This document shows positions 22,552 to 54,567 of a stretch of DNA of 64,000 bases, piece after piece. The number at the start of each line of letters is the position of its first letter. Position 1 is the stretch's first letter. The translations under genes were made by a program, and so were the position numbers. Source of the stretch: Candidatus Fermentibacterota bacterium (GTDB lineage Bacteria > Fermentibacterota > Fermentibacteria > Fermentibacterales > Fermentibacteraceae); the NCBI GenBank assembly GCA_963718745.1, contig OY970370.1, forward strand, positions 1,479,904-1,543,903. The letters are read 5' to 3'. The notes beneath the pieces are model-generated. The model did no database searches, was not told the DNA's origin, and worked only from the letters and a program-made list of their open reading frames with translations.

Positions 22552-22875
22552 ATGGCCGGGAGGAAGTCCTTTTCCTGCAGCCAGTGCGGCGGTCCGGACC
22601 TGGAGCGGTCGGGGGAGGGCAAGCTGCGCTGCTCCTACTGTGGCAGCCTCTACGGCTACAGCGTCAGAGGCCCGGCTGTGGTCATCCGGAAGGGTGCAAG
22701 CGTCGTCTTCGGCAGGAATGCAAAAGTGGTGATCAGGGGCGGTCTGGAGATAGAGGACGAGGCCGATGTACGGATGGACGGAGAGATAACCCTCCTCGAG
22801 CGGGCCCCGGAGGAGGACGTCACCGCGGCCAGACTGCGGCTCCTGGAGAGTGGGCGGGCGGACGGGGAATCCTGA
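22552..22875 (+). CDS. hypothetical zinc-ribbon protein (CxxC...CxxC)
   Basis: CSQCGG ... CSYCGS N-terminal pair. Confidence 0.4.
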   Translation: MAGRKSFSCSQCGGPDLERSGEGKLRCSYCGSLYGYSVRGPAVVIRKGASVVFGRNAKVVIRGGLEIEDEADVRMDGEITLLERAPEEDVTAARLRLLESGRADGES

Positions 22876-22918
22876 ACCGCCGGCTGCATGGGAATGGGTG
22901 AAGAGGAGAGCTGAAGCG

Positions 22919-23707
22919 ATGAAGGTTGTCGATCTCCCCGAGGACAGGAAGGATCTGTTCTGCCTCTGTCTCGAGGACTGGTCGGAGGAAGCCAGGGAAG
23001 CCGGCCCGCGGCGCCGCCAGTGGCTCGACCGCGGTCGCAGTCGTCTCGGGCTGCGAGCCATGCTCGCCATCGACGACTCGGGTATCGAGGGGGGGATGAT
23101 CCAGTACGGACCCATCGAGCACTCGCACGTCCATGGATCGGGCCTCTACTTCATCTACTGCATCCATGTGCACGGCTACAGACAGGGCCGGGGCGACTTC
23201 CGGAAGCGTGGGATGGGCGAGGCCCTGCTGGCGGCCGCCGAGGAGGACGCGCGCGGTCTGGGGGCGGGCGGCATGGCCGCATGGGGTGTCTCCCTGCCTT
23301 TCTGGATGAAGGCCTCGTGGTTCCGGAAGCATGGCTACCGGAAGGCTGACCGCCGGGGCATCTCGGTACTGCTCTGGAAGCCCTTTACGGACGGCGCAGA
23401 ACCTCCTCGATGGATTCCGAAGGCTTCGAAGCGCCCTGATCCCATCCCCGGGAAGGTCGTCGTCACTGCGTTCTCCAGCGGGTGGTGCATGGCGCAGAAC
23501 CTCGTCCTGGAGCGCGCCCGGCGTGCTGCTGCCGAGTTCGGCGACAAGGTCGCCTTCTGCGAGATCGACACGTCTTCGAGGGATGCCGTAGCCCTGTGGG
23601 GCATCTCCGACGCCGTCCTGGTGGATGGCAGGAATCTGCAGAAGGGCCCGCCGCCCAGCTACGAAGCGATCCGCAAGGCGATTGCACGGCGCGTCGCCAG
23701 GCTGTAG
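22919..23707 (+). CDS. GNAT-like acetyltransferase fused to thioredoxin-like C-terminal domain
   Basis: central ...GYRQGRGDFRKRGMGEALL GNAT motif-A-like; C-terminus VVVTAFSSGWCMAQN...ISDAVLVDG thioredoxin-fold-like; start at ATG 22919 after GAGGAGAG. Confidence 0.45.
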   Translation: MKVVDLPEDRKDLFCLCLEDWSEEAREAGPRRRQWLDRGRSRLGLRAMLAIDDSGIEGGMIQYGPIEHSHVHGSGLYFIYCIHVHGYRQGRGDFRKRGMGEALLAAAEEDARGLGAGGMAAWGVSLPFWMKASWFRKHGYRKADRRGISVLLWKPFTDGAEPPRWIPKASKRPDPIPGKVVVTAFSSGWCMAQNLVLERARRAAAEFGDKVAFCEIDTSSRDAVALWGISDAVLVDGRNLQKGPPPSYEAIRKAIARRVARL

Positions 23708-23923: not shown

Positions 23924-25132
23924 ATGAACGGACGGGGCATCGGGGTATTGCCGAAGATCGTTCTGTTATTTGTCATGGCGGGGACCGTCCATGCGCAGAC
24001 CGACGGCTCGATAGTCGCCTGGGGGAGCAACGGGTCCGGCCAGTGCGACGTTCCGCCGCCCAACGAGGGATTTGTCGACGTCTCCGCGGGATACTCCTTC
24101 ACGGTCGCCCTGAAGGATGACGGCACGGCGGTGGCCTGGGGCAGCAACAGCTTGGGCCAGTGCGACGTACCATTTCCGAACAACGGTTTTGTCGAACTGT
24201 CCTGTGGCGCTTTCCACACCCTGGCACTGAAGGCGGACAGCTCCATCGTCGCCTGGGGGTTCAATTCGAGCGGCCAGTGCAACATCCCGCTCCCGAACAG
24301 TGATTTCATCGCCGTGGCCGGAGGTGAGCAGTACAGCATGGCGCTCAGGGCCGACGGCACAATTGAGGCCTGGGGATCGAACAGTCATGGACAGCTGAAC
24401 ATACCCTCTCCCAACCAGGACTTCGTTGCCATTGCAGCCGGGATCAATCACTCCATGGGCCTGAAGGCGGACGGCTCCATCGTATGCTGGGGTAACAACA
24501 ACTACTACCAGTGCATGGTCCCCGACCCCAACACCGGTTTCGTCGCGATGGCCGCCGGAGGCAACCACAGCCTCGGCCTGAAGGCGGACAGCACCGTTAT
24601 TGCCTGGGGCAGCAACCAGTCCGGGGCTTGCGAAGTACCCGCCCCGAACCAGGATTTCACTGCTATCGACGCTGGAATCGGCCACAGTCTGGGCCTCAAG
24701 GCTGACGGGTCCATCGTGGCGTGGGGTTGGGACGAGTACGGCCAGAGCACCGTTCCCCAGCCAAGTCAGGATTTCACCGCGGTGGCAGCGGGCAGCACCC
24801 ACAGCCTTGGCCTGCACATATTCGAAACAGGAATAGAGGAAACCTCTCCCGGCATGACCGATCTTGCGATTCTCTCCGTTGCCCCGAATCCCTGCTGCCG
24901 CACCGCCTCGCTGATGCTCCGGATGCAGCAGCCCGGCAGCCTCCTGCTGGAGGTCTTCGACATGTCCGGAAGGCTCGTGGAGGAATCCGATCTCGGGGCA
25001 TTCCCCGCAGGCACTCACTCCTTGATGTGGACGGGAGTGGATGTCGGCGGCAGGCCCCTGTCACACGGCGTCTACATAATCCGCATCTCGTCGTCATCGC
25101 GGAGCGCAGCCGCCAGGGTGATGCTGCTGTAG
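23924..25132 (+). CDS. RCC1-repeat beta-propeller protein with T9SS C-terminal sorting domain
   Basis: 7 repeats G(S/T)IVAWG.N..GQC.VP.PN..F; CTD LEVFDMSGRLVE...GVYIIRI. Confidence 0.75.
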   Translation: MNGRGIGVLPKIVLLFVMAGTVHAQTDGSIVAWGSNGSGQCDVPPPNEGFVDVSAGYSFTVALKDDGTAVAWGSNSLGQCDVPFPNNGFVELSCGAFHTLALKADSSIVAWGFNSSGQCNIPLPNSDFIAVAGGEQYSMALRADGTIEAWGSNSHGQLNIPSPNQDFVAIAAGINHSMGLKADGSIVCWGNNNYYQCMVPDPNTGFVAMAAGGNHSLGLKADSTVIAWGSNQSGACEVPAPNQDFTAIDAGIGHSLGLKADGSIVAWGWDEYGQSTVPQPSQDFTAVAAGSTHSLGLHIFETGIEETSPGMTDLAILSVAPNPCCRTASLMLRMQQPGSLLLEVFDMSGRLVEESDLGAFPAGTHSLMWTGVDVGGRPLSHGVYIIRISSSSRSAAARVMLL

Positions 25133-25281
25133 CAGCCGGGACATCCGAACCTGCCTGGAAAGACCCGGGCAGCAATCCTCATCGAACAATGCCCGTTCGG
25201 CACGGGTGGGATGGGGAGTCAGCCTACAAATCCGGTATCACGCAACCCCCCTGAGATCCCGGATCGCCCCGGGCGTCACGC

Positions 25282-26457
25282 TCAGGCGGCTGACGGGAAC
25301 CAGCCGCGGGTCTTCAGGCAGATCTTCACGAGCATCAGCATCACGGGCACCTCGATGAGCACGCCGACCACGGTCGCAAGCGCTGCCCCGGAGGAGAGCC
25401 CGAACAGCATCGTCGCCGTCGCGATGGCCACCTCGAAGTGGTTCGAGGCTCCGATCATGGCCGCCGGTGCGGCGTCCTCGTACCGCAGTCTCAGCAGTCT
25501 GGCAAGCCAGTATCCGAGCCAGAAGATCAGGTTGGTCTGGATGAAGAGCGGGATGGCGATCCAGAGGATCGTCAGGGGATTGGACAGGATGGTCTCCCCC
25601 TTGAAGCTGAAGAGCAGCACCAGGGTGGTCAGCAGGGCGACTATCGTGACGGGGGTGAGGGTGTGCAGGAACTTATCCCGGAACCACTGTTCGCCCTTCG
25701 AACGGATGATCCACCTGCGCGAAAGGTATCCGGCAACCAGTGGCAGGGCGACGTAGATGGCGATCGACAGCACCAGTGCCTGCCACGGGACGGGGAGTCT
25801 GCCGACACCCAGCAGGAACCCGCCGAGCAGGCCGTACAGGACCAGCATGGAGAGAGAGTTGATGGCTACCATCACAAGCGTCAGCCCGTCGTTCCCGCGG
25901 GCCAGGTAGCCCCAGACCAGGACCATCGCCGTGCACGGGGCGATCCCCAGCAGGATGCAGCCGGCGAAGTAGCTCCTCCAGAGAGGCACCTGGAGCATCT
26001 TCACGCCGTCCTGCATGACTACGGTCCCGGCCCCGTGAGTCGCGCCGACGGGGAGATCCAGCCCGAAGGGCATCTTGACGAGATCGATGGCGTCAGGGCC
26101 GATGAATCCCCTGAACAGGATGCCGAGGAACAGGGCGGCGATCGCGTACATGGTGAAAGGCTTGATGGCCCAGTTCACGAACAGCGTAAGCCATACCGGT
26201 CTGCCGCTTCTTCCAGCCTGGACGACCGAGGCGAAGTCGATCTTCACCATGATGGGATACATCATGAAGAAGAGACAGATGGCTATCGGTATGGATACGA
26301 CCGGGGCGCCGTTCACGAAGATCGAGAGCCCGTCGAGCCTCGAAGCCAGTGTCGGCGCAAGCTTGCCGAGGAGGATGCCGCCGCCTATGCAGAGCAGGAC
26401 CCACAACGTCAGGTTCCGCTCGAAGCCGCTTATCCTGCGGGAGGTTTCCACACCCAT
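25282..26457 (-). CDS. acr3: arsenite efflux transporter ACR3 family
   Basis: 10-TM BART-superfamily protein with [18 protein letters not shown] motif typical of Acr3; start at ATG 26457. Confidence 0.8.
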
Positions 26458-26480
26458 TCCCCGACACCGCCTTTCAACCA

Positions 26481-26507
26481 AGATCGGTTTTAACTATTGA
26501 TCCTAAC
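26481..26507 (+). repeat. AT-rich 27-bp palindromic repeat (A/G)GATCGGTTTTAACTATTGATCCTAAC, copy 1
   Basis: identical to copy at 54461 and inverted (1 mismatch) at 26693. Confidence 0.7.
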
Positions 26508-26692
26508 TTTTCCCGTACGAATCCAGCCAGCATTTCCCATGCACTCGAAACGGCCTCGCTTCCTCGCCGCTGCCCTTCGCCAGGTCACGGTGCTCAGGAT
26601 CAGTGCTTCATGCGCTTGAACCGTTGCGGGACAGCGCATCGGACTTCATCTGAGAACGGCTCTGAGTGATGAGCCGGGGCATCCGTCAGATA

Positions 26693-26719
26693 GTTAGGAT
26701 CAGTAGTTAAAACCGATCC
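26693..26719 (-). repeat. AT-rich 27-bp palindromic repeat, copy 2 (inverted; CTACTGATCC variant)
   Basis: reverse complement of copy 1 with 1 mismatch; the pair flanks ~185 bp between ccdA stop and acr3 start. Confidence 0.7.
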
Positions 26720-26725
26720 TGACAG

Positions 26726-27424
26726 TCAGACCGCCTTGCGAAGAAGATAGATGCCCGCCAGGATCACGAGCGCCCCGGCGATACGCCTCAGGATCAGTAG
26801 AGCCTTTGACTTCTCGTTCCAGTTCAGGAGCCTGCAGACTGATCCGGAGAAGGTCCCTGCGAGCAGTATGACACCGCAGTGCCCTGCGATGAAGGCCCCC
26901 ATCATCCCTGCTGCGAATACGGGCCGGGCTGCCTGCGCCGCCAGGATCACGCCGAGGAGCGGAGCGATGAAGGCGAATGTGCAGGGGCCGGCGGCTGCGC
27001 CGAAGACGAGCCCGCATATGGCGGCTCCTGCGAGCCCGGACCTCCTCCCCGGCATCGAGAGTGCCGGGACGGGGATGGTGAAGACCTCCATGAGATTGAG
27101 GCCGAACAGGATCATCAGTACAGAAAGGATGATCCCGCCGGTGCGGCCGATGTCTCCCGCTATCCTGCCTGCACCGAGGGTTATGACCCCAAGTGAGGCA
27201 ACCGCCAGGAAGACTCCCCCGGCGAAGGCTGCCGAGATCCGGAAGGCCTTCTTCGTCGATGTCCCCGGGTCCCTGGATATGTACCCCACCAGCAGGGGTA
27301 TGCTGGCGAGGTGGCACGGGCTGAGGATGATGCTCAGGATGCCCCAGAGAAGTGCTGCGGCGAGTCCGACGGCCGGGGCGGAGCTTTCGACGGCCCTTCC
27401 CAGACCGGTCAGGAATTCACTCAC
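26726..27424 (-). CDS. ccdA: cytochrome c biogenesis / thiol-disulfide transporter CcdA (DsbD TM-domain family)
   Basis: 6-TM protein with SPCHLASIPLL and second TM Cys (AAGPCTF). Confidence 0.75.
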   Translation of the reverse strand: MSEFLTGLGRAVESSAPAVGLAAALLWGILSIILSPCHLASIPLLVGYISRDPGTSTKKAFRISAAFAGGVFLAVASLGVITLGAGRIAGDIGRTGGIILSVLMILFGLNLMEVFTIPVPALSMPGRRSGLAGAAICGLVFGAAAGPCTFAFIAPLLGVILAAQAARPVFAAGMMGAFIAGHCGVILLAGTFSGSVCRLLNWNEKSKALLILRRIAGALVILAGIYLLRKAV

Positions 27425-27836
27425 CGGGCTCCTCCGGGATCACATCGTATCCCAGCTCGACCCACTTTGCGACCATGTCCTCGGCCGAAACGACACCCTC
27501 GTGTCTCCACAGCTCGATTCCGGTCTCGGACAGGAAGATCTGCGTCGGGATCACCCTGATGCCGTAGGTGCTCGCCGCAGCCTGGTTCTCGTTCACATCG
27601 ATGAAGGAGATATCGAGGCTCCCCTGCGTCATGTCCTCGAGACGATCGAGCTCGGTCATCATGGTCTGGCACGGGATGCACATCTGCGAACCGAGGTCTA
27701 TCACCCTCGGCAGCGAGGTGGTCGATGTCGAATCCGGAGCCTGGACCGGATCGCCCCCCTTGTCCCGGGTAAGTACCGCTGCGGCCGCTATGCCGGCTAC
27801 GGCTGCGATTATCGCAATCCTCCCAAGTGTCTTCAT
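27419..27836 (-). CDS. membrane-anchored thioredoxin-fold protein (CIPC active site)
   Basis: N-terminal TM MKTLGRIAIIAAVAGIAAAAV then Trx fold with C-I-P-C; ATGA overlap with ccdA start. Confidence 0.65.
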
Positions 27837-27853
27837 CGGTGTGATCTCCAGCT

Positions 27854-28108
27854 TCAGTTGAGCTTCTGTTTGTTTCCCGTCAGGATGTCCACGATCTCGT
27901 CGACACCCGGGACTCTGCCCATGACACTGACGACACCGTCCACCACTAGCGCCGGAGTCATCATCACGCCGAACTTCATGATCTCCATGATGTCGGTGAC
28001 CTTCTCGACCCTGACGTCCGCGAGCCCTGTCCTCTCGACGGCCTGATGCACGTGCTCCGAGAGCTTCACGCACTTCGGGCATCCTGTCCCCAGCACCTGG
28101 ACGAGCAT
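27854..28108 (-). CDS. redox-active disulfide protein 2 (small thioredoxin-like, TIGR00412 type)
   Basis: MLVQVLGTGCPKCVKL...VTDIMEIMKFGVMMTPALVVDG matches the ~80-aa GCPKC family. Confidence 0.75.
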   Translation of the reverse strand: MLVQVLGTGCPKCVKLSEHVHQAVERTGLADVRVEKVTDIMEIMKFGVMMTPALVVDGVVSVMGRVPGVDEIVDILTGNKQKLN

Positions 28109-28127
28109 CTTCCTGCCTCCGGTCCGG

Positions 28128-29423
28128 TCAGCCGGCAAAGGAGCCGAACACGAACCCGGTTAGAGTTGCGAGAACGATTACGAGCAGCACGAATACCGCG
28201 GTCTTCCTGGTCCCCATGATGCTCTTCAGGACCAGCATGCTGGGCAGTGAGAGCGCCGGGCCGGCCAGGAGCAGCGCAAGGGCCGGTCCGCTGCCCATGC
28301 CGGAGCCTATGAGCCCCTGGAGTATGGGGACCTCCGTCAGGGTAGCGAAGTACATCAGCGCGCCGGAGAAGGATGCGAAGAGATTGGCGAGGATGGAGTT
28401 CCCTCCGACCGCTCCGGCGATCCAGCCCGAGGGGATCATCGCCTCGTGTCCGGGCCTGCCCAGGAGGAAGCCCGCGACCAGGACACCGCCCAGGAGGAGA
28501 GGGATGATCTGTCGCGCGAAGCCGACCGTGGCGTCGAACCATTCCCTGAGCTGGGGTCCGCCCCGGGCGGAGATGGCGCCGACTGCGACGATACCGGCCG
28601 AAAAGGCATAGACCGGGTGCCCTGGCCAGATCACCGCAAGCGTCCCGACAGGGATGCTTCCGAGCAGCACCTTCCTCCAGCCCACCTTGAAATCGAGCAC
28701 CAGCATGAGCGCCAGGAGGATGGCGAAGGCCGATGTGATCTGCCACTTGATGCCTGCGATGAACGCCCACAGGGGAGCAGCTCCCTCGGGGCTGCCCCAG
28801 TTGGCGAAGACCAGGATCCCGACCATCGAGGCGAAGTACAGGACGGTTCTCCACAGAGGGCGCTGAGGCTCGGCTGGTCCCGTCGCAATGGCCGTCCTCG
28901 CGATCTCGGACTTCGACTTCCTGAAGAAGAGGCTCATGAGCAGGCCGATCACTATGCTGAAGACAACCGCCCCGACGGCCCTGGCGATTCCTATCTCGAG
29001 CCCGAGCACCCTGGCCGTCATCACGATGGCCAGGATGTTGATGGCGGGGCCGCTGTACAGGAAGGCCGTGGCGGGGCCGAGTCCGGCACCCATCGTATAG
29101 ATGCCCGCGAAGATGGGCAGTACGGTGCAGGAGCAGACCGCCAGGATCGTACCGGACACCGAGGCGACTCCATAGGCCTTCATCCTGTTTGCCCCCGGAC
29201 CGAGGTACTTGAGGACCGAGTCCTTGTTGAGGAAGACTCCGATCGCTCCTGCGATGAATAGGGCCGGCACGAGGCAGAGCAGAACGTGGAGTCTCGCGTA
29301 CTCGTTGAGCATGTAGAAGGCCTCGAGCACCGCGCCCTCGAATCTGGCGGAACCGGCGGGTATGAACCATGCCGCGAGGAGAACTGCGGCAAGGAGCAGC
29401 AGGGTCCGGGTCGTCGAGGTCAT
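28128..29423 (-). CDS. permease of DUF318/ArsP family (vicinal-Cys CSC motif)
   Basis: multi-TM; AVCSCTVLP resembles ArsP TPFcSCS motif; ATG overlaps arsR stop (ATGA). Confidence 0.65.
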   Translation of the reverse strand: MTSTTRTLLLLAAVLLAAWFIPAGSARFEGAVLEAFYMLNEYARLHVLLCLVPALFIAGAIGVFLNKDSVLKYLGPGANRMKAYGVASVSGTILAVCSCTVLPIFAGIYTMGAGLGPATAFLYSGPAINILAIVMTARVLGLEIGIARAVGAVVFSIVIGLLMSLFFRKSKSEIARTAIATGPAEPQRPLWRTVLYFASMVGILVFANWGSPEGAAPLWAFIAGIKWQITSAFAILLALMLVLDFKVGWRKVLLGSIPVGTLAVIWPGHPVYAFSAGIVAVGAISARGGPQLREWFDATVGFARQIIPLLLGGVLVAGFLLGRPGHEAMIPSGWIAGAVGGNSILANLFASFSGALMYFATLTEVPILQGLIGSGMGSGPALALLLAGPALSLPSMLVLKSIMGTRKTAVFVLLVIVLATLTGFVFGSFAG

Positions 29424-29752
29424 ACCTTCGAATTCTCTCTGAGACAGAGGGCGCTGGTGCACTCCTCACCGTTCATGACCCGCTCGATGCACTCGAAGAA
29501 ATCGGTTATGCATGGTGCTGCAAGGGAGTAGAAGACCCTGTTCCCCTCCTTGCGATCCCTTACAAGCCCGGCGTTCCGGAGCACCACGAGGTGCCTCGAG
29601 ACAGTGGAGATGTCCTGCCCGACAGCGGCTGAAAGATCTCCGACACAAAGCTCACGGTCCGTCAGGAGATCCACCATGTGGAGCCTGGCCGGATTCGCCA
29701 TCGCAGAAAGAACAGATGCCCTCCTGCGGAAGAGTTCGTTCTGTTCGGTCAT
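29420..29752 (-). CDS. arsR: ArsR/SmtB family metalloregulator
   Basis: HTH ...ELCVGDLSAAVGQDISTVSRHLVVLRNAGLV...; extra C-terminal Cys cluster CITDFFEC...EEC. Confidence 0.8.
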   Translation of the reverse strand: MTEQNELFRRRASVLSAMANPARLHMVDLLTDRELCVGDLSAAVGQDISTVSRHLVVLRNAGLVRDRKEGNRVFYSLAAPCITDFFECIERVMNGEECTSALCLRENSKV

Positions 29753-29760
29753 ATGGTCAG

Positions 29761-29808
29761 CCTCCTTGCTTATTTTGTAAAATAGACAAACGTATGGTCT
29801 TGGTCAAG
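29761..29808 (-). promoter_or_regulatory. arsR operon promoter/operator: -35 TTGACC, 18-nt spacer, -10 TATTTT overlapped by palindrome TTTGT-N7-ACAAA; RBS GGAGG
   Basis: read on minus strand: cTTGACCaagaccatacgTTTGTcTATTTTACAAAataagcaaGGAGGctgaccatATG. Confidence 0.45.
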
Positions 29809-29913
29809 CATCGGTTGACTTTCGACTTGTTCTCCTGGGTGTTTCGAGGAAACCACGAGGCACGGAGGATGATCCGTCTGTTCAACAATGCATTTACCGC
29901 ATGCAGGCTGGCT

Positions 29914-30345
29914 TCAGGGCAGCCCCACGCCCGCGCCCAGGCTGAATAGCCAGTCGTCGGACACGTCTCCAGATAAACGCCTGTACGCACCGCCGAAGAC
30001 GGATATCAGCCGCACGGACACCATGCCTCTGGCTCCGAGGTAGGAGGCGTCGGACCCCTCCCAGAGATAGAGACCTGAGGCGCTTATCCCGGCGGTCGCC
30101 AGCGGTGCGATCATCATTATCGACCCCTTGACCCCTGCGTTGAGCCCGATCCCGTCCCGGCCCGCTGAAGCCGACGCGAAAGGCCCTGCCTCGGTGACGA
30201 ATCCCGAGAAGTCGAAGAAGTTGACTCCCAGCTCGCCGCCCAGCCGGAGCGGCCAGGAGTACTGGATCTGCGCGGTCGGATAGGCGCCCTGTGCAAGCGG
30301 AGCGACAACCAGCAGGATGACTGCCAGAAGACACCTGCGGCTCAT
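29914..30345 (-). CDS. small outer-membrane/secreted hypothetical protein
   Basis: signal peptide MSRRCLLAVILLVVAPLAQGA; Gly/Ser-rich beta-strand pattern. Confidence 0.4.
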   Translation of the reverse strand: MSRRCLLAVILLVVAPLAQGAYPTAQIQYSWPLRLGGELGVNFFDFSGFVTEAGPFASASAGRDGIGLNAGVKGSIMMIAPLATAGISASGLYLWEGSDASYLGARGMVSVRLISVFGGAYRRLSGDVSDDWLFSLGAGVGLP

Positions 30346-30457
30346 GCCTGTTCTCCTTCCGGCCCCCGAAGCCCCCGAACGCATCGATCGCAACCCGGCT
30401 CTGCTCAAGCTATCGGAGGCGAAGCTCGAGGCGATCGCCGGGAGGGAGGACCCGGCT

Positions 30458-53952: not shown

Positions 53953-54473
53953 TGCCCGCAGCAGGCGGACCGGCACCCCTCGACGGATACTGCGGGCTCT
54001 ACTGCGGAGCGTGCGAAGTGCTGAGAGCCGTACGCGACGGCACCGTGGAGGAGGCGGCCAGGGCTTTCGGCGTGGACCCGAAGGATGTCCGCTGCGAGGG
54101 TTGCAGGTCCGGGGATGTGTTCTGCAACTGCGAGAGTTGCGCCATGAGGGCCTGTGCTTCCTCCCGGGGCTTCGAGTTCTGCAGCGGGTGCGGGGACTTC
54201 CCCTGCGGCGAGTACGAAAGGGTCGCCTCTTTCGGCAAGAGGCTCCCGACGCATTTCATGATCACGATGAAGAACCTGTCCGAGATCCGGGAGAAGGGCG
54301 CGGAAGAGTGGAGGCGTCTTCAGGTGGAGAGATGGGCCTGCCCCTCGTGCGGAGCCCCGTTCTCCTGGTATGCCGTAAACTGCGCGTGCGGCTGCGACCT
54401 GCAAGGCAGGAAGGACTGGGAGATGCTCTCGGAGGAGGACACCGCCTTCTTCCGCGGGAAGGATCGGTTTTAA
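53952..54473 (+). CDS. DUF3795 family cysteine-rich protein
   Basis: YCGLYCGACEV...CEGCRSGDVFCNCESCAMRAC... Cys pattern of DUF3795; last 4 codons + stop lie inside the 27-bp AT-rich repeat. Confidence 0.6.
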   Translation: MPAAGGPAPLDGYCGLYCGACEVLRAVRDGTVEEAARAFGVDPKDVRCEGCRSGDVFCNCESCAMRACASSRGFEFCSGCGDFPCGEYERVASFGKRLPTHFMITMKNLSEIREKGAEEWRRLQVERWACPSCGAPFSWYAVNCACGCDLQGRKDWEMLSEEDTAFFRGKDRF

Positions 54474-54487
54474 CTATTGATCCTAAC
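54461..54487 (+). repeat. AT-rich 27-bp palindromic repeat, copy 3 (identical to 26481 copy)
   Basis: GGATCGGTTTTAACTATTGATCCTAAC. Confidence 0.7.
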
Positions 54488-54567
54488 TCGCCGAACAGCT
54501 CCGACCACGCGCTGGCTCGAACGCGCATCGCATTCTCTGATCGAGGCTTGCAGCCCCCCCGTCGAAG

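Follow-up and report, generated by a model that had tools for sequence, protein, structure and literature searches.

Why should proteins that pass electrons between thiols be encoded together with arsenic exporters? We have addressed this question for a gene cluster in a stretch of 64,000 nucleotides, here called the window, from the genome of a Candidatus Fermentibacterota bacterium (assembly GCA_963718745.1, contig OY970370.1, forward-strand positions 1,479,904 to 1,543,903). Between positions 25282 and 29752 the minus strand of the window carries six head-to-tail open reading frames, co-oriented and placed as a preliminary description of this DNA had set out. They encode an ArsR/SmtB metalloregulator, an ArsP_1 permease, a small cytoplasmic thioredoxin-fold protein, a signal-anchored thioredoxin, a membrane protein that is CcdA/DsbD-like by indirect evidence and an ACR3-family arsenite efflux transporter. 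The gene set is a real cluster for arsenic detoxification under the control of ArsR, and clusters of this type are common in anaerobes. This was also the view of the preliminary description, which included the CcdA and secreted thioredoxin pair in the cluster, and the gene content supports it. Its recurrence in many phyla puts the arrangement far beyond chance. The cluster is a new member, from Fermentibacterota, of a known set of ars-associated genes with a very wide distribution.

Gene content and junctions of the cluster

The acr3 gene is the last of the six (25282-26457, minus strand). Its product matches the equivalog family TIGR00832 with 371 bits against a cut-off of 282.8, over model positions 2-327 of 327, and also matches PF01758; the earlier Acr3 assignment is thus confirmed. 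The protein has 391 amino acids if read from the ATG at 26457, or 399 from a TTG at 26481, and is 84-92% identical to Acr3 of Fermentibacteria relatives.

At the other end of the cluster arsR (29420-29752, minus strand) encodes a protein of 110 amino acids that matches NF033788 (87.6 bits, cut-off 55) and PF01022 (51 bits, E 1e-13), and is 43% identical to Escherichia coli ArsR. The As(III)-sensing site of the R773/E. coli type has the sequence ELCVCDL, with Cys32 and Cys34. The window ArsR fails a test for this site, having ELCVGDL, and additionally holds Cys81 and Cys88. Among 43 ArsR orthologues that are encoded beside the permease, the As(III)-type CVC motif is present in 77% and Cys81/Cys88 in 91%. 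The conservation of this latter pair suggests a second or alternative sensing site. The ArsR proteins of the Fermentibacteria clade have glycine at residue 38, where 77% of the cluster-linked orthologues carry the second cysteine of the CVC motif. Just 5' of arsR, a consensus scan identified a sigma-70-like site TTGACC-17-TATTTT (29807-29779, minus strand). It overlaps a short palindrome, TATTTTACAAAATA, that from its sequence and position is a candidate ArsR operator. A TTGT.TAT.TT block and the ribosome-binding region AAGCAAGGAGG are partly kept in three Fermentibacteria relatives.

The permease (28128-29423, minus strand, 431 amino acids) matches PF03773 (ArsP_1) with 227 bits against a cut-off of 32.3 (E 3e-67). 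It had been described as a vicinal-cysteine permease of the DUF318/ArsP type. The family stands, but the cysteines are not adjacent; the motif is C-S-C, and is found in 48 of 49 permease orthologues. The segment AVCSCTVLPIFAG aligns with PFCSCSTIPILAG of an ars-linked permease of Staphylococcus. Relative to the 294-amino acid type the window protein has about 117 extra residues, which are hydrophobic-looking. It scores far under the cut-offs of every curated NCBIfam equivalog, including those of SO_0444 and SaoE.

The small thioredoxin-fold protein (27854-28108, minus strand, 84 amino acids) matches PF13192 with 86 bits and TIGR00412.2, the MTH895/ArsE family, with 104.3 bits against a cut-off of 62. 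The two profile checks that had been proposed, PF03773 for the permease and TIGR00412 for this protein, are therefore both above cut-off. The family is also called redox-active disulfide protein 2. The motif CPKC is present in the window protein and in 55 of 71 orthologues, and the gene is a neighbor of the permease gene both in related loci and on annotated plasmids.

The anchored thioredoxin (27417-27836, minus strand, 139 amino acids) matches PF00085 with 35.5 bits. It has a CIPC active site and an N-terminal hydrophobic segment, MKTLGRIAIIAAVAGIAAAAVL; C(I/V)PC is found in 57 of 75 orthologues. There was no match at E ≤ 10 to the ArsF family NF040494 (cut-off 60 bits), and BLASTP comparison with a true member of that family found nothing. 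It resembles ArsF only in having a signal or anchor and a CxxC motif, and in being encoded upstream of a DsbD-like gene.

The remaining gene product is a six-helix membrane protein of 232 amino acids with a GTG start (26726-27424, minus strand). Five of the family assignments made earlier hold directly, but that of this protein to CcdA is indirect. It has no Pfam match even at E ≤ 10, and its NCBIfam matches are weak (TsoB at 1e-5 and DsbD at 0.007). Most of its homologues have a precomputed PF02683 match, including an orthologue from Candidatus Fermentibacter that is 85% identical. A profile of 66 sequences of the CcdA-like subfamily aligns with E. coli DsbD at an hhalign probability of 91.8%. 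Two cysteines, Cys37 (SPCH) and Cys148 (GPCT), are invariant in the 66 sequences, and align with Cys163 and Cys285 of DsbD. We generated an AlphaFold2 model (pLDDT 76.5, pTM 0.71), for which the best PDB match in Foldseek was CcdA (5VKV, a nuclear magnetic resonance structure), albeit a weak one with E 0.02 and TM 0.49-0.50. A search of PDB sequences with the profile gave nothing at E ≤ 10, and the connection to CcdA comes from the fold search only. Taken with the PF02683 matches of the orthologues, the hhalign comparison and the weak NCBIfam matches, this indicates a CcdA/DsbD-like protein.

The same protein was compared with ArsG. The window sequence has no match to NF040495 (equivalog cut-off 200 bits); this family is the best NCBIfam match of the orthologues, at 39-51 bits and so below the cut-off. 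Alignment of the subfamily profile with true ArsG gave an hhalign probability of 97.5% and E 6e-12, by which the CcdA-like protein is clearly homologous to ArsG despite its sub-threshold score. The anchored thioredoxin and the CcdA-like protein fail the thresholds of ArsF and ArsG, respectively, and are therefore analogues. The CcdA-like subfamily has in addition an invariant His38 beside the first relay cysteine, and, within the fifth helix, an invariant Gly-His182-Cys183. The latter position is occupied by LGMG in E. coli DsbD, and true ArsG has neither His38 nor the His-Cys. His38 and His182-Cys183 could form a metal(loid)-binding site.

We read the junctions between the genes base by base. 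The arsR stop codon overlaps the start of the permease gene by four nucleotides (ATGA, 29423-29420), as had been noted. A gap of 19 nucleotides follows the permease gene, with GGAGG preceding the next start, and one of 17 nucleotides separates the genes of the small and the anchored thioredoxins. The genes of the anchored thioredoxin and the CcdA-like protein had also been said to overlap by ATGA, which is not the case; the overlap is the eight nucleotides GTGAGTGA (27424-27417), within which the CcdA-like gene starts at GTG. The relative L001 has the same overlaps at these junctions. The final gap, between the CcdA-like gene and acr3, is 268 nucleotides to the ATG at 26457 or 244 nucleotides to the TTG at 26481. 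The preliminary description had given all gaps as 20 nucleotides or less, which is true of the two shorter ones but not of this one. It had also proposed a single tightly coupled operon; this is weakened at the last junction, by the length of the spacer and by a repeat element that lies within it.

The cluster contains no arsC gene, as stated earlier, and none is detectable elsewhere in the window. A tblastn search with verified ArsC of both types, ArsH, ArsO, ArsA, ArsD and ArsB found nothing significant in the 64-kb window; ArsM was not among the queries. In two Fermentibacteria-like relatives (L009 and L010) acr3 is preceded by a DGC-domain gene and followed by one for a low-molecular-weight ArsC. 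Either the lack of ArsC in the window is thus lineage-specific, or the gene is located elsewhere in the 2.5-Mb genome.

Recurrence of the gene set in other lineages

We scanned one genome per species using two motifs of the CcdA-like subfamily, and obtained at least 600 stretches, of which 599 were confirmed by tblastn. The best 80 come from Fermentibacteria, Aegiribacteria, Planctomycetota, Verrucomicrobiota, Kiritimatiellales, Lentisphaerae, WOR-3, Elusimicrobia, Latescibacterota, Hydrogenedentes, Aminicenantes, Thermodesulfobacteriota and others. The six proteins of the window, together with reference ars proteins, were then mapped onto 83 loci. Since the loci had been selected for their similarity to the CcdA-like protein, the counts describe that subfamily rather than all CcdA genes.

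In 75 loci the region immediately upstream of the CcdA-like gene is visible, and 69 of them have a thioredoxin gene there, within 150 nucleotides. Where at least 4 kb of upstream sequence was available (57 loci), 55 loci encode the small thioredoxin, 52 the permease and 50 ArsR; 47 encode all three. Of the 47 loci that extend for 4 kb or more in both directions, 34 contain Acr3 and 12 a low-molecular-weight ArsC. Acr3 is directly downstream of the CcdA-like gene in 14 of 73 loci. The exact gene order of the window also occurs in three Fermentibacteria loci (L001, L008 and L034), and with small additions in Aminicenantes (L044), Elusimicrobia (L068) and others. The module of ArsR, PF03773 permease, small thioredoxin, secreted thioredoxin and CcdA-like protein is thus among the most conserved ars-linked neighborhoods in uncultured anaerobic phyla.

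The permease-small thioredoxin and thioredoxin-CcdA pairs behave as units. In L032 the thioredoxin-CcdA pair precedes the permease and small thioredoxin. The permease and small thioredoxin occur alone as a pair in ars islands on plasmids of Acinetobacter, Klebsiella and NT-25, and also on a Leptolinea plasmid. A thioredoxin-CcdA pair of this subfamily is found in an RND/CDF metal-efflux island of Sulfuricella. This was the only plasmid match in a tblastn search with the window CcdA-like protein; ArsG of Prevotella was reached with a relaxed E-value and a Kiritimatiellia orthologue as query.

The preliminary description considered the linkage of a thiol-reducing pathway to arsenic transporters to be non-standard. 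This proves incorrect, since the linkage is present in most of the 83 loci, has counterparts in cultured organisms that carry the names ArsE, ArsF and ArsG, and was published in 2010 (PMC2963123). Castillo and Saier (section 3.9 of that paper) listed the same components in ars operons, together with ArsP homologues of two types, of about 300 and about 400 amino acids. They found the redox genes in 8 operons of 7 organisms, 7 with arsC, tied them to ArsC reduction, and discussed CcdA-type transmembrane electron flow as a possibility (PMC2963123). The window differs from those operons in having no ArsC, and the module is now seen in hundreds of species-level genomes.

The curated families point to a further known system. 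NCBIfam names TIGR00412.2 the 'MTH895/ArsE family', NF040494 the 'nitrophenyl compound nitroreductase subunit ArsF family' and NF040495 the 'aromatic aminobenezylarsenical efflux permease ArsG family'. ArsE and ArsF of Shewanella putrefaciens 200 reportedly act on trivalent roxarsone and nitarsone by reducing their nitro group, and ArsG is said to export the amino products. The ArsE, ArsF and ArsG family names go back to Chen, Zhang and Rosen 2019 (Environ Sci Technol 53:6182). The small thioredoxin of the window passes the cut-off of the ArsE family. In Prevotella nigrescens F0103 (NZ_CP072340.1, PGAP annotation) there is a cluster of an ArsR-like regulator, ArsF (131.8 bits), ArsG (292.9 bits, PF13386), a small thioredoxin (108.3 bits), a PF03773 permease, ArsC and ACR3. 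This is the component set of the window plus ArsC, in another gene order. True ArsF has a signal peptide and a CATC motif. Like the anchored thioredoxin of the window it is an exported CxxC protein, whose gene is directly upstream of that of a six-helix protein of the DsbD superfamily with two membrane cysteines. The membrane proteins differ in that ArsG belongs to PF13386, whereas the window protein is of the PF02683 type by its orthologues and its subfamily has the extra invariant His-Cys. For the window itself the gene content matters little, as the set has been ars-associated since 2010 and was partly characterized as ArsEFG in 2019. What is at stake is how anaerobes protect their envelope thiols from arsenic, and the native function that lies behind the NCBI names ArsF and ArsG.

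Possible roles of the exporters and the redox proteins

We propose a cluster of three units, comprising efflux by Acr3, an exporter formed by the permease and the small thioredoxin, and a CcdA-type relay. As a whole we consider this picture probable, though by no means assured. Acr3 would pump arsenite from the cytoplasm, a role that rests on equivalog-level family membership and is secure at the level of the family. The PF03773 permease with the small CPKC protein would provide a second export route, for thiol-reactive arsenic species. The small protein might keep the CSC motif of the permease reduced, or hand over the substrate. ArsP of Campylobacter jejuni is an exporter of MAs(III) and trivalent roxarsone, and does not export arsenite (review PMC6205960). 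By analogy, the window permease probably acts on a trivalent organoarsenical or on some other arsenic species that reacts with thiols. Like C. jejuni ArsP it belongs to PF03773, has conserved cysteines as a motif in its first half and occurs beside Acr3 under ArsR. It differs in its length of 431 amino acids, in the insertion of about 117 residues and in being always paired with a small thioredoxin-fold protein.

In the third unit, Cys37 and Cys148 of the CcdA-like protein would take electrons from a cytoplasmic thioredoxin and pass them to the anchored CIPC thioredoxin outside the membrane. This relay would keep or restore reduced thiols in the envelope while thiol-binding As(III) species are expelled. 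We infer this step from the fold, the aligned catalytic cysteines, the translational coupling and the conserved adjacency of the two genes. At the sequence level the anchored thioredoxin and CcdA-like protein together show all the hallmarks of a relay that carries reductant to the periplasm. The likeness to CcdA (with partners of the ResA/CcsX/TlpA type) and to DsbD lies in the six-helix fold, the two aligned cysteines and the signal-anchored CxxC thioredoxin encoded immediately upstream. Unlike those proteins, the window protein is unlinked to cytochrome c maturation genes, is placed under ArsR with arsenic exporters and has the additional His38 and His182-Cys183. ScsB/ScsC is a transmembrane reductant relay for copper stress. 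The periplasmic handling of (organo)arsenicals put forward in the preliminary description is putative, but can reasonably be inferred.

A number of observations weigh against the three-unit picture, or against parts of it. The window ArsR has CVG in place of CVC, so its inducer is uncertain. The nearest curated relatives of the permease are a Cu/Zn exporter and SaoE, so that an arsenical as its substrate is putative. The small thioredoxin tracks the permease rather than the CcdA-like gene, so that a cytoplasmic electron donor for the relay has to be assumed. A pure electron relay does not need the extra invariant His-Cys, and the curated family closest to the CcdA-like protein, ArsG, is named by NCBI as an efflux permease and not as an electron carrier. 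Lastly, the strong predicted long-range hairpin in the spacer of 244-268 nucleotides before acr3 argues against simple co-translation of that gene.

A more novel possibility is that the CcdA-like protein is not an electron conduit alone. It might also contain a thiol- and imidazole-lined site for translocation or sensing of As(III) or organoarsenicals, with the outer thioredoxin stripping or processing the bound arsenical in the periplasm. This possibility is raised because His38 and His182-Cys183 are invariant, lie mid-helix and are absent from both DsbD and true ArsG; we regard it as decidedly unlikely. In other lineages the outer partner is a thioredoxin-TRASH-MerB-like fusion. If such a site did exist, the widespread module would constitute a new trans-envelope pathway of arsenical processing.

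The cluster might alternatively function as an ArsEFG-type system, in which the small and anchored thioredoxins would reduce nitro-aromatic trivalent arsenicals and the CcdA-like protein would be the efflux permease for the product. The small thioredoxin scores above the MTH895/ArsE cut-off, ArsG is the best curated match of the CcdA-like orthologues and aligns well with the subfamily profile (97.5%, E 6e-12), and the ArsF/ArsG cluster of P. nigrescens has the same components. The observation that fits best is the extra invariant His-Cys, which together with His38 could form a membrane-embedded arsenic site. Yet the ArsG cut-off is missed by a wide interval (39-51 bits for the orthologues against 200, and no match for the window protein), and no similarity of the anchored thioredoxin to ArsF proteins could be detected. 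Moreover, true ArsF itself has a signal peptide and CxxC, so that both it and the anchored thioredoxin look like parts of periplasmic thiol relays, which is awkward for a cytoplasmic nitro-reduction. Nor can synthetic nitro-aromatic arsenicals account for a module found in hundreds of environmental lineages. We therefore think an ArsEFG-type function unlikely. Another view is that the module from arsR to the CcdA-like gene serves a general defense against soft metals or reactive sulfur (Cu, Zn, Hg or sulfane sulfur), with acr3 a mere neighbor. The Cu/Zn exporter and SaoE as relatives of the permease, the Sulfuricella pair within a metal-efflux island and the incomplete CVC site of the window ArsR would all agree with this, as would the MerB-like, TRASH-like, DGC and rhodanese genes beside the module in other lineages and the 13 of 47 well-covered loci that have no classical ars gene within 8 kb. 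It is opposed by Acr3 in 34 and low-molecular-weight ArsC in 12 of those 47 loci, by the As(III)-type CVC in 77% of linked ArsR proteins and by the presence of the permease-small thioredoxin pair inside annotated ars islands of Acinetobacter, Klebsiella and Prevotella. In addition, there is no copper or mercury resistance gene in the window's cluster. On balance a general soft-metal function seems very unlikely.

How the genes are transcribed is a separate matter, and independent of the choice between these functions. On the three-unit picture, arsR through the CcdA-like gene are most likely transcribed together, starting from the promoter-like site that precedes arsR, and acr3, beyond the repeat-bearing spacer, may be co-transcribed, attenuated or separately expressed. 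The alternative is two transcription units, with acr3 expressed separately or processed from the remainder. The gap before acr3 is far longer than the 17-19 nucleotides or overlaps elsewhere in the cluster. It contains inverted arms of 30 nucleotides (26479-26508 and 26692-26721) that are 93% complementary and surround 183 nucleotides, with a predicted folding energy of -109 kcal/mol (z = -5.3); this element (26479-26721) has no assigned strand. There is also a weak terminator-like hairpin at 26733-26714. In close relatives acr3 is 88-117 nucleotides from the CcdA-like gene, or a DGC gene lies between them; the 85%-identical relative has 88 nucleotides at this junction and lacks the repeat. 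Against two units, we sought a promoter-like site in the spacer and found none, and gene order and orientation are conserved, with Acr3 directly downstream in the 14 loci noted above. REP-type elements inside operons usually modulate transcripts, and rarely abolish read-through. A division into two units is thus possible but doubtful.

Repeat motif, accessory genes and surroundings

The repeat arms in the acr3 spacer belong to a motif of 29-30 nucleotides, AGGATCGGTTTTAACTAYTGATCCTAACT, of which there are three copies in the 64 kb, against a chance expectation of none. By itself the motif forms a hairpin with a 6-bp stem. The third copy (54460-54488) lies at the 3' end of a plus-strand open reading frame, in a convergent intergenic region. 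No copies of the arm were found in 89 related loci, and Rfam gave no match at E ≤ 1 over positions 25000-30200. We considered a transposable element as the origin of the inverted repeat, but rejected this because no target-site duplication directly flanks the arms and there are no copies in the 89 loci. The sole metagenome match of the motif is within a pdxH-like coding sequence, consistent with chance. The repeat looks like a genome-specific element resembling a repetitive extragenic palindrome (REP/BIME-type).

Several of the related loci carry genes that the window lacks. Among 57 loci, 19 encode DGC-domain proteins (PF08859) and 6 encode PF04060 'FeS' proteins. Their genes are inserted between those of the permease, the small thioredoxin and the thioredoxin-CcdA pair, for example in L003 (2410-2787), L006 and L007 (3310-3690 and 2463-3260) and L009 (8769-9092). 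In 14 of 57 loci there is an extra protein of about 430 amino acids (L007, 4071-5360). It is anchored in the membrane at its N-terminus, contains a CxPC thioredoxin domain and ends in a MerB-like domain (PF03243, 56.7 bits, cut-off 27). It also has two TRASH-like cysteine clusters (Cx2C...Cx3C and Cx2C...CCx2C), which come from reading the motifs and not from a database match. Full-length homologues of the L007 protein are present in L017, L019, L038, L039, L041, L043, L045, L046, L049, L055, L056, L065, L075, L078, L079 and L081. The organomercurial-lyase-like domain is apparently exported, and its occurrence in a cluster of ars type may be more novel than the cluster of the window itself. 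L006 and L007 are from two ENA assemblies and have the same gene order; the MerB-like gene and acr3 are intact in L007 but fragmented in L006, reflecting either pseudogenization or an assembly or frameshift error.

The genes that flank the cluster encode FG-GAP and SBBP repeat proteins with Por_Secre_tail sorting domains, an RCC1-repeat protein and open reading frames without Pfam matches, and none of these flanking genes is arsenic-related. Two open reading frames near the cluster, at 22850-23707 (plus strand, 285 amino acids) and 29914-30408 (minus strand, 164 amino acids), have no Pfam match at E ≤ 0.001. The end of the former looks thioredoxin-like by eye (SSGWC...).

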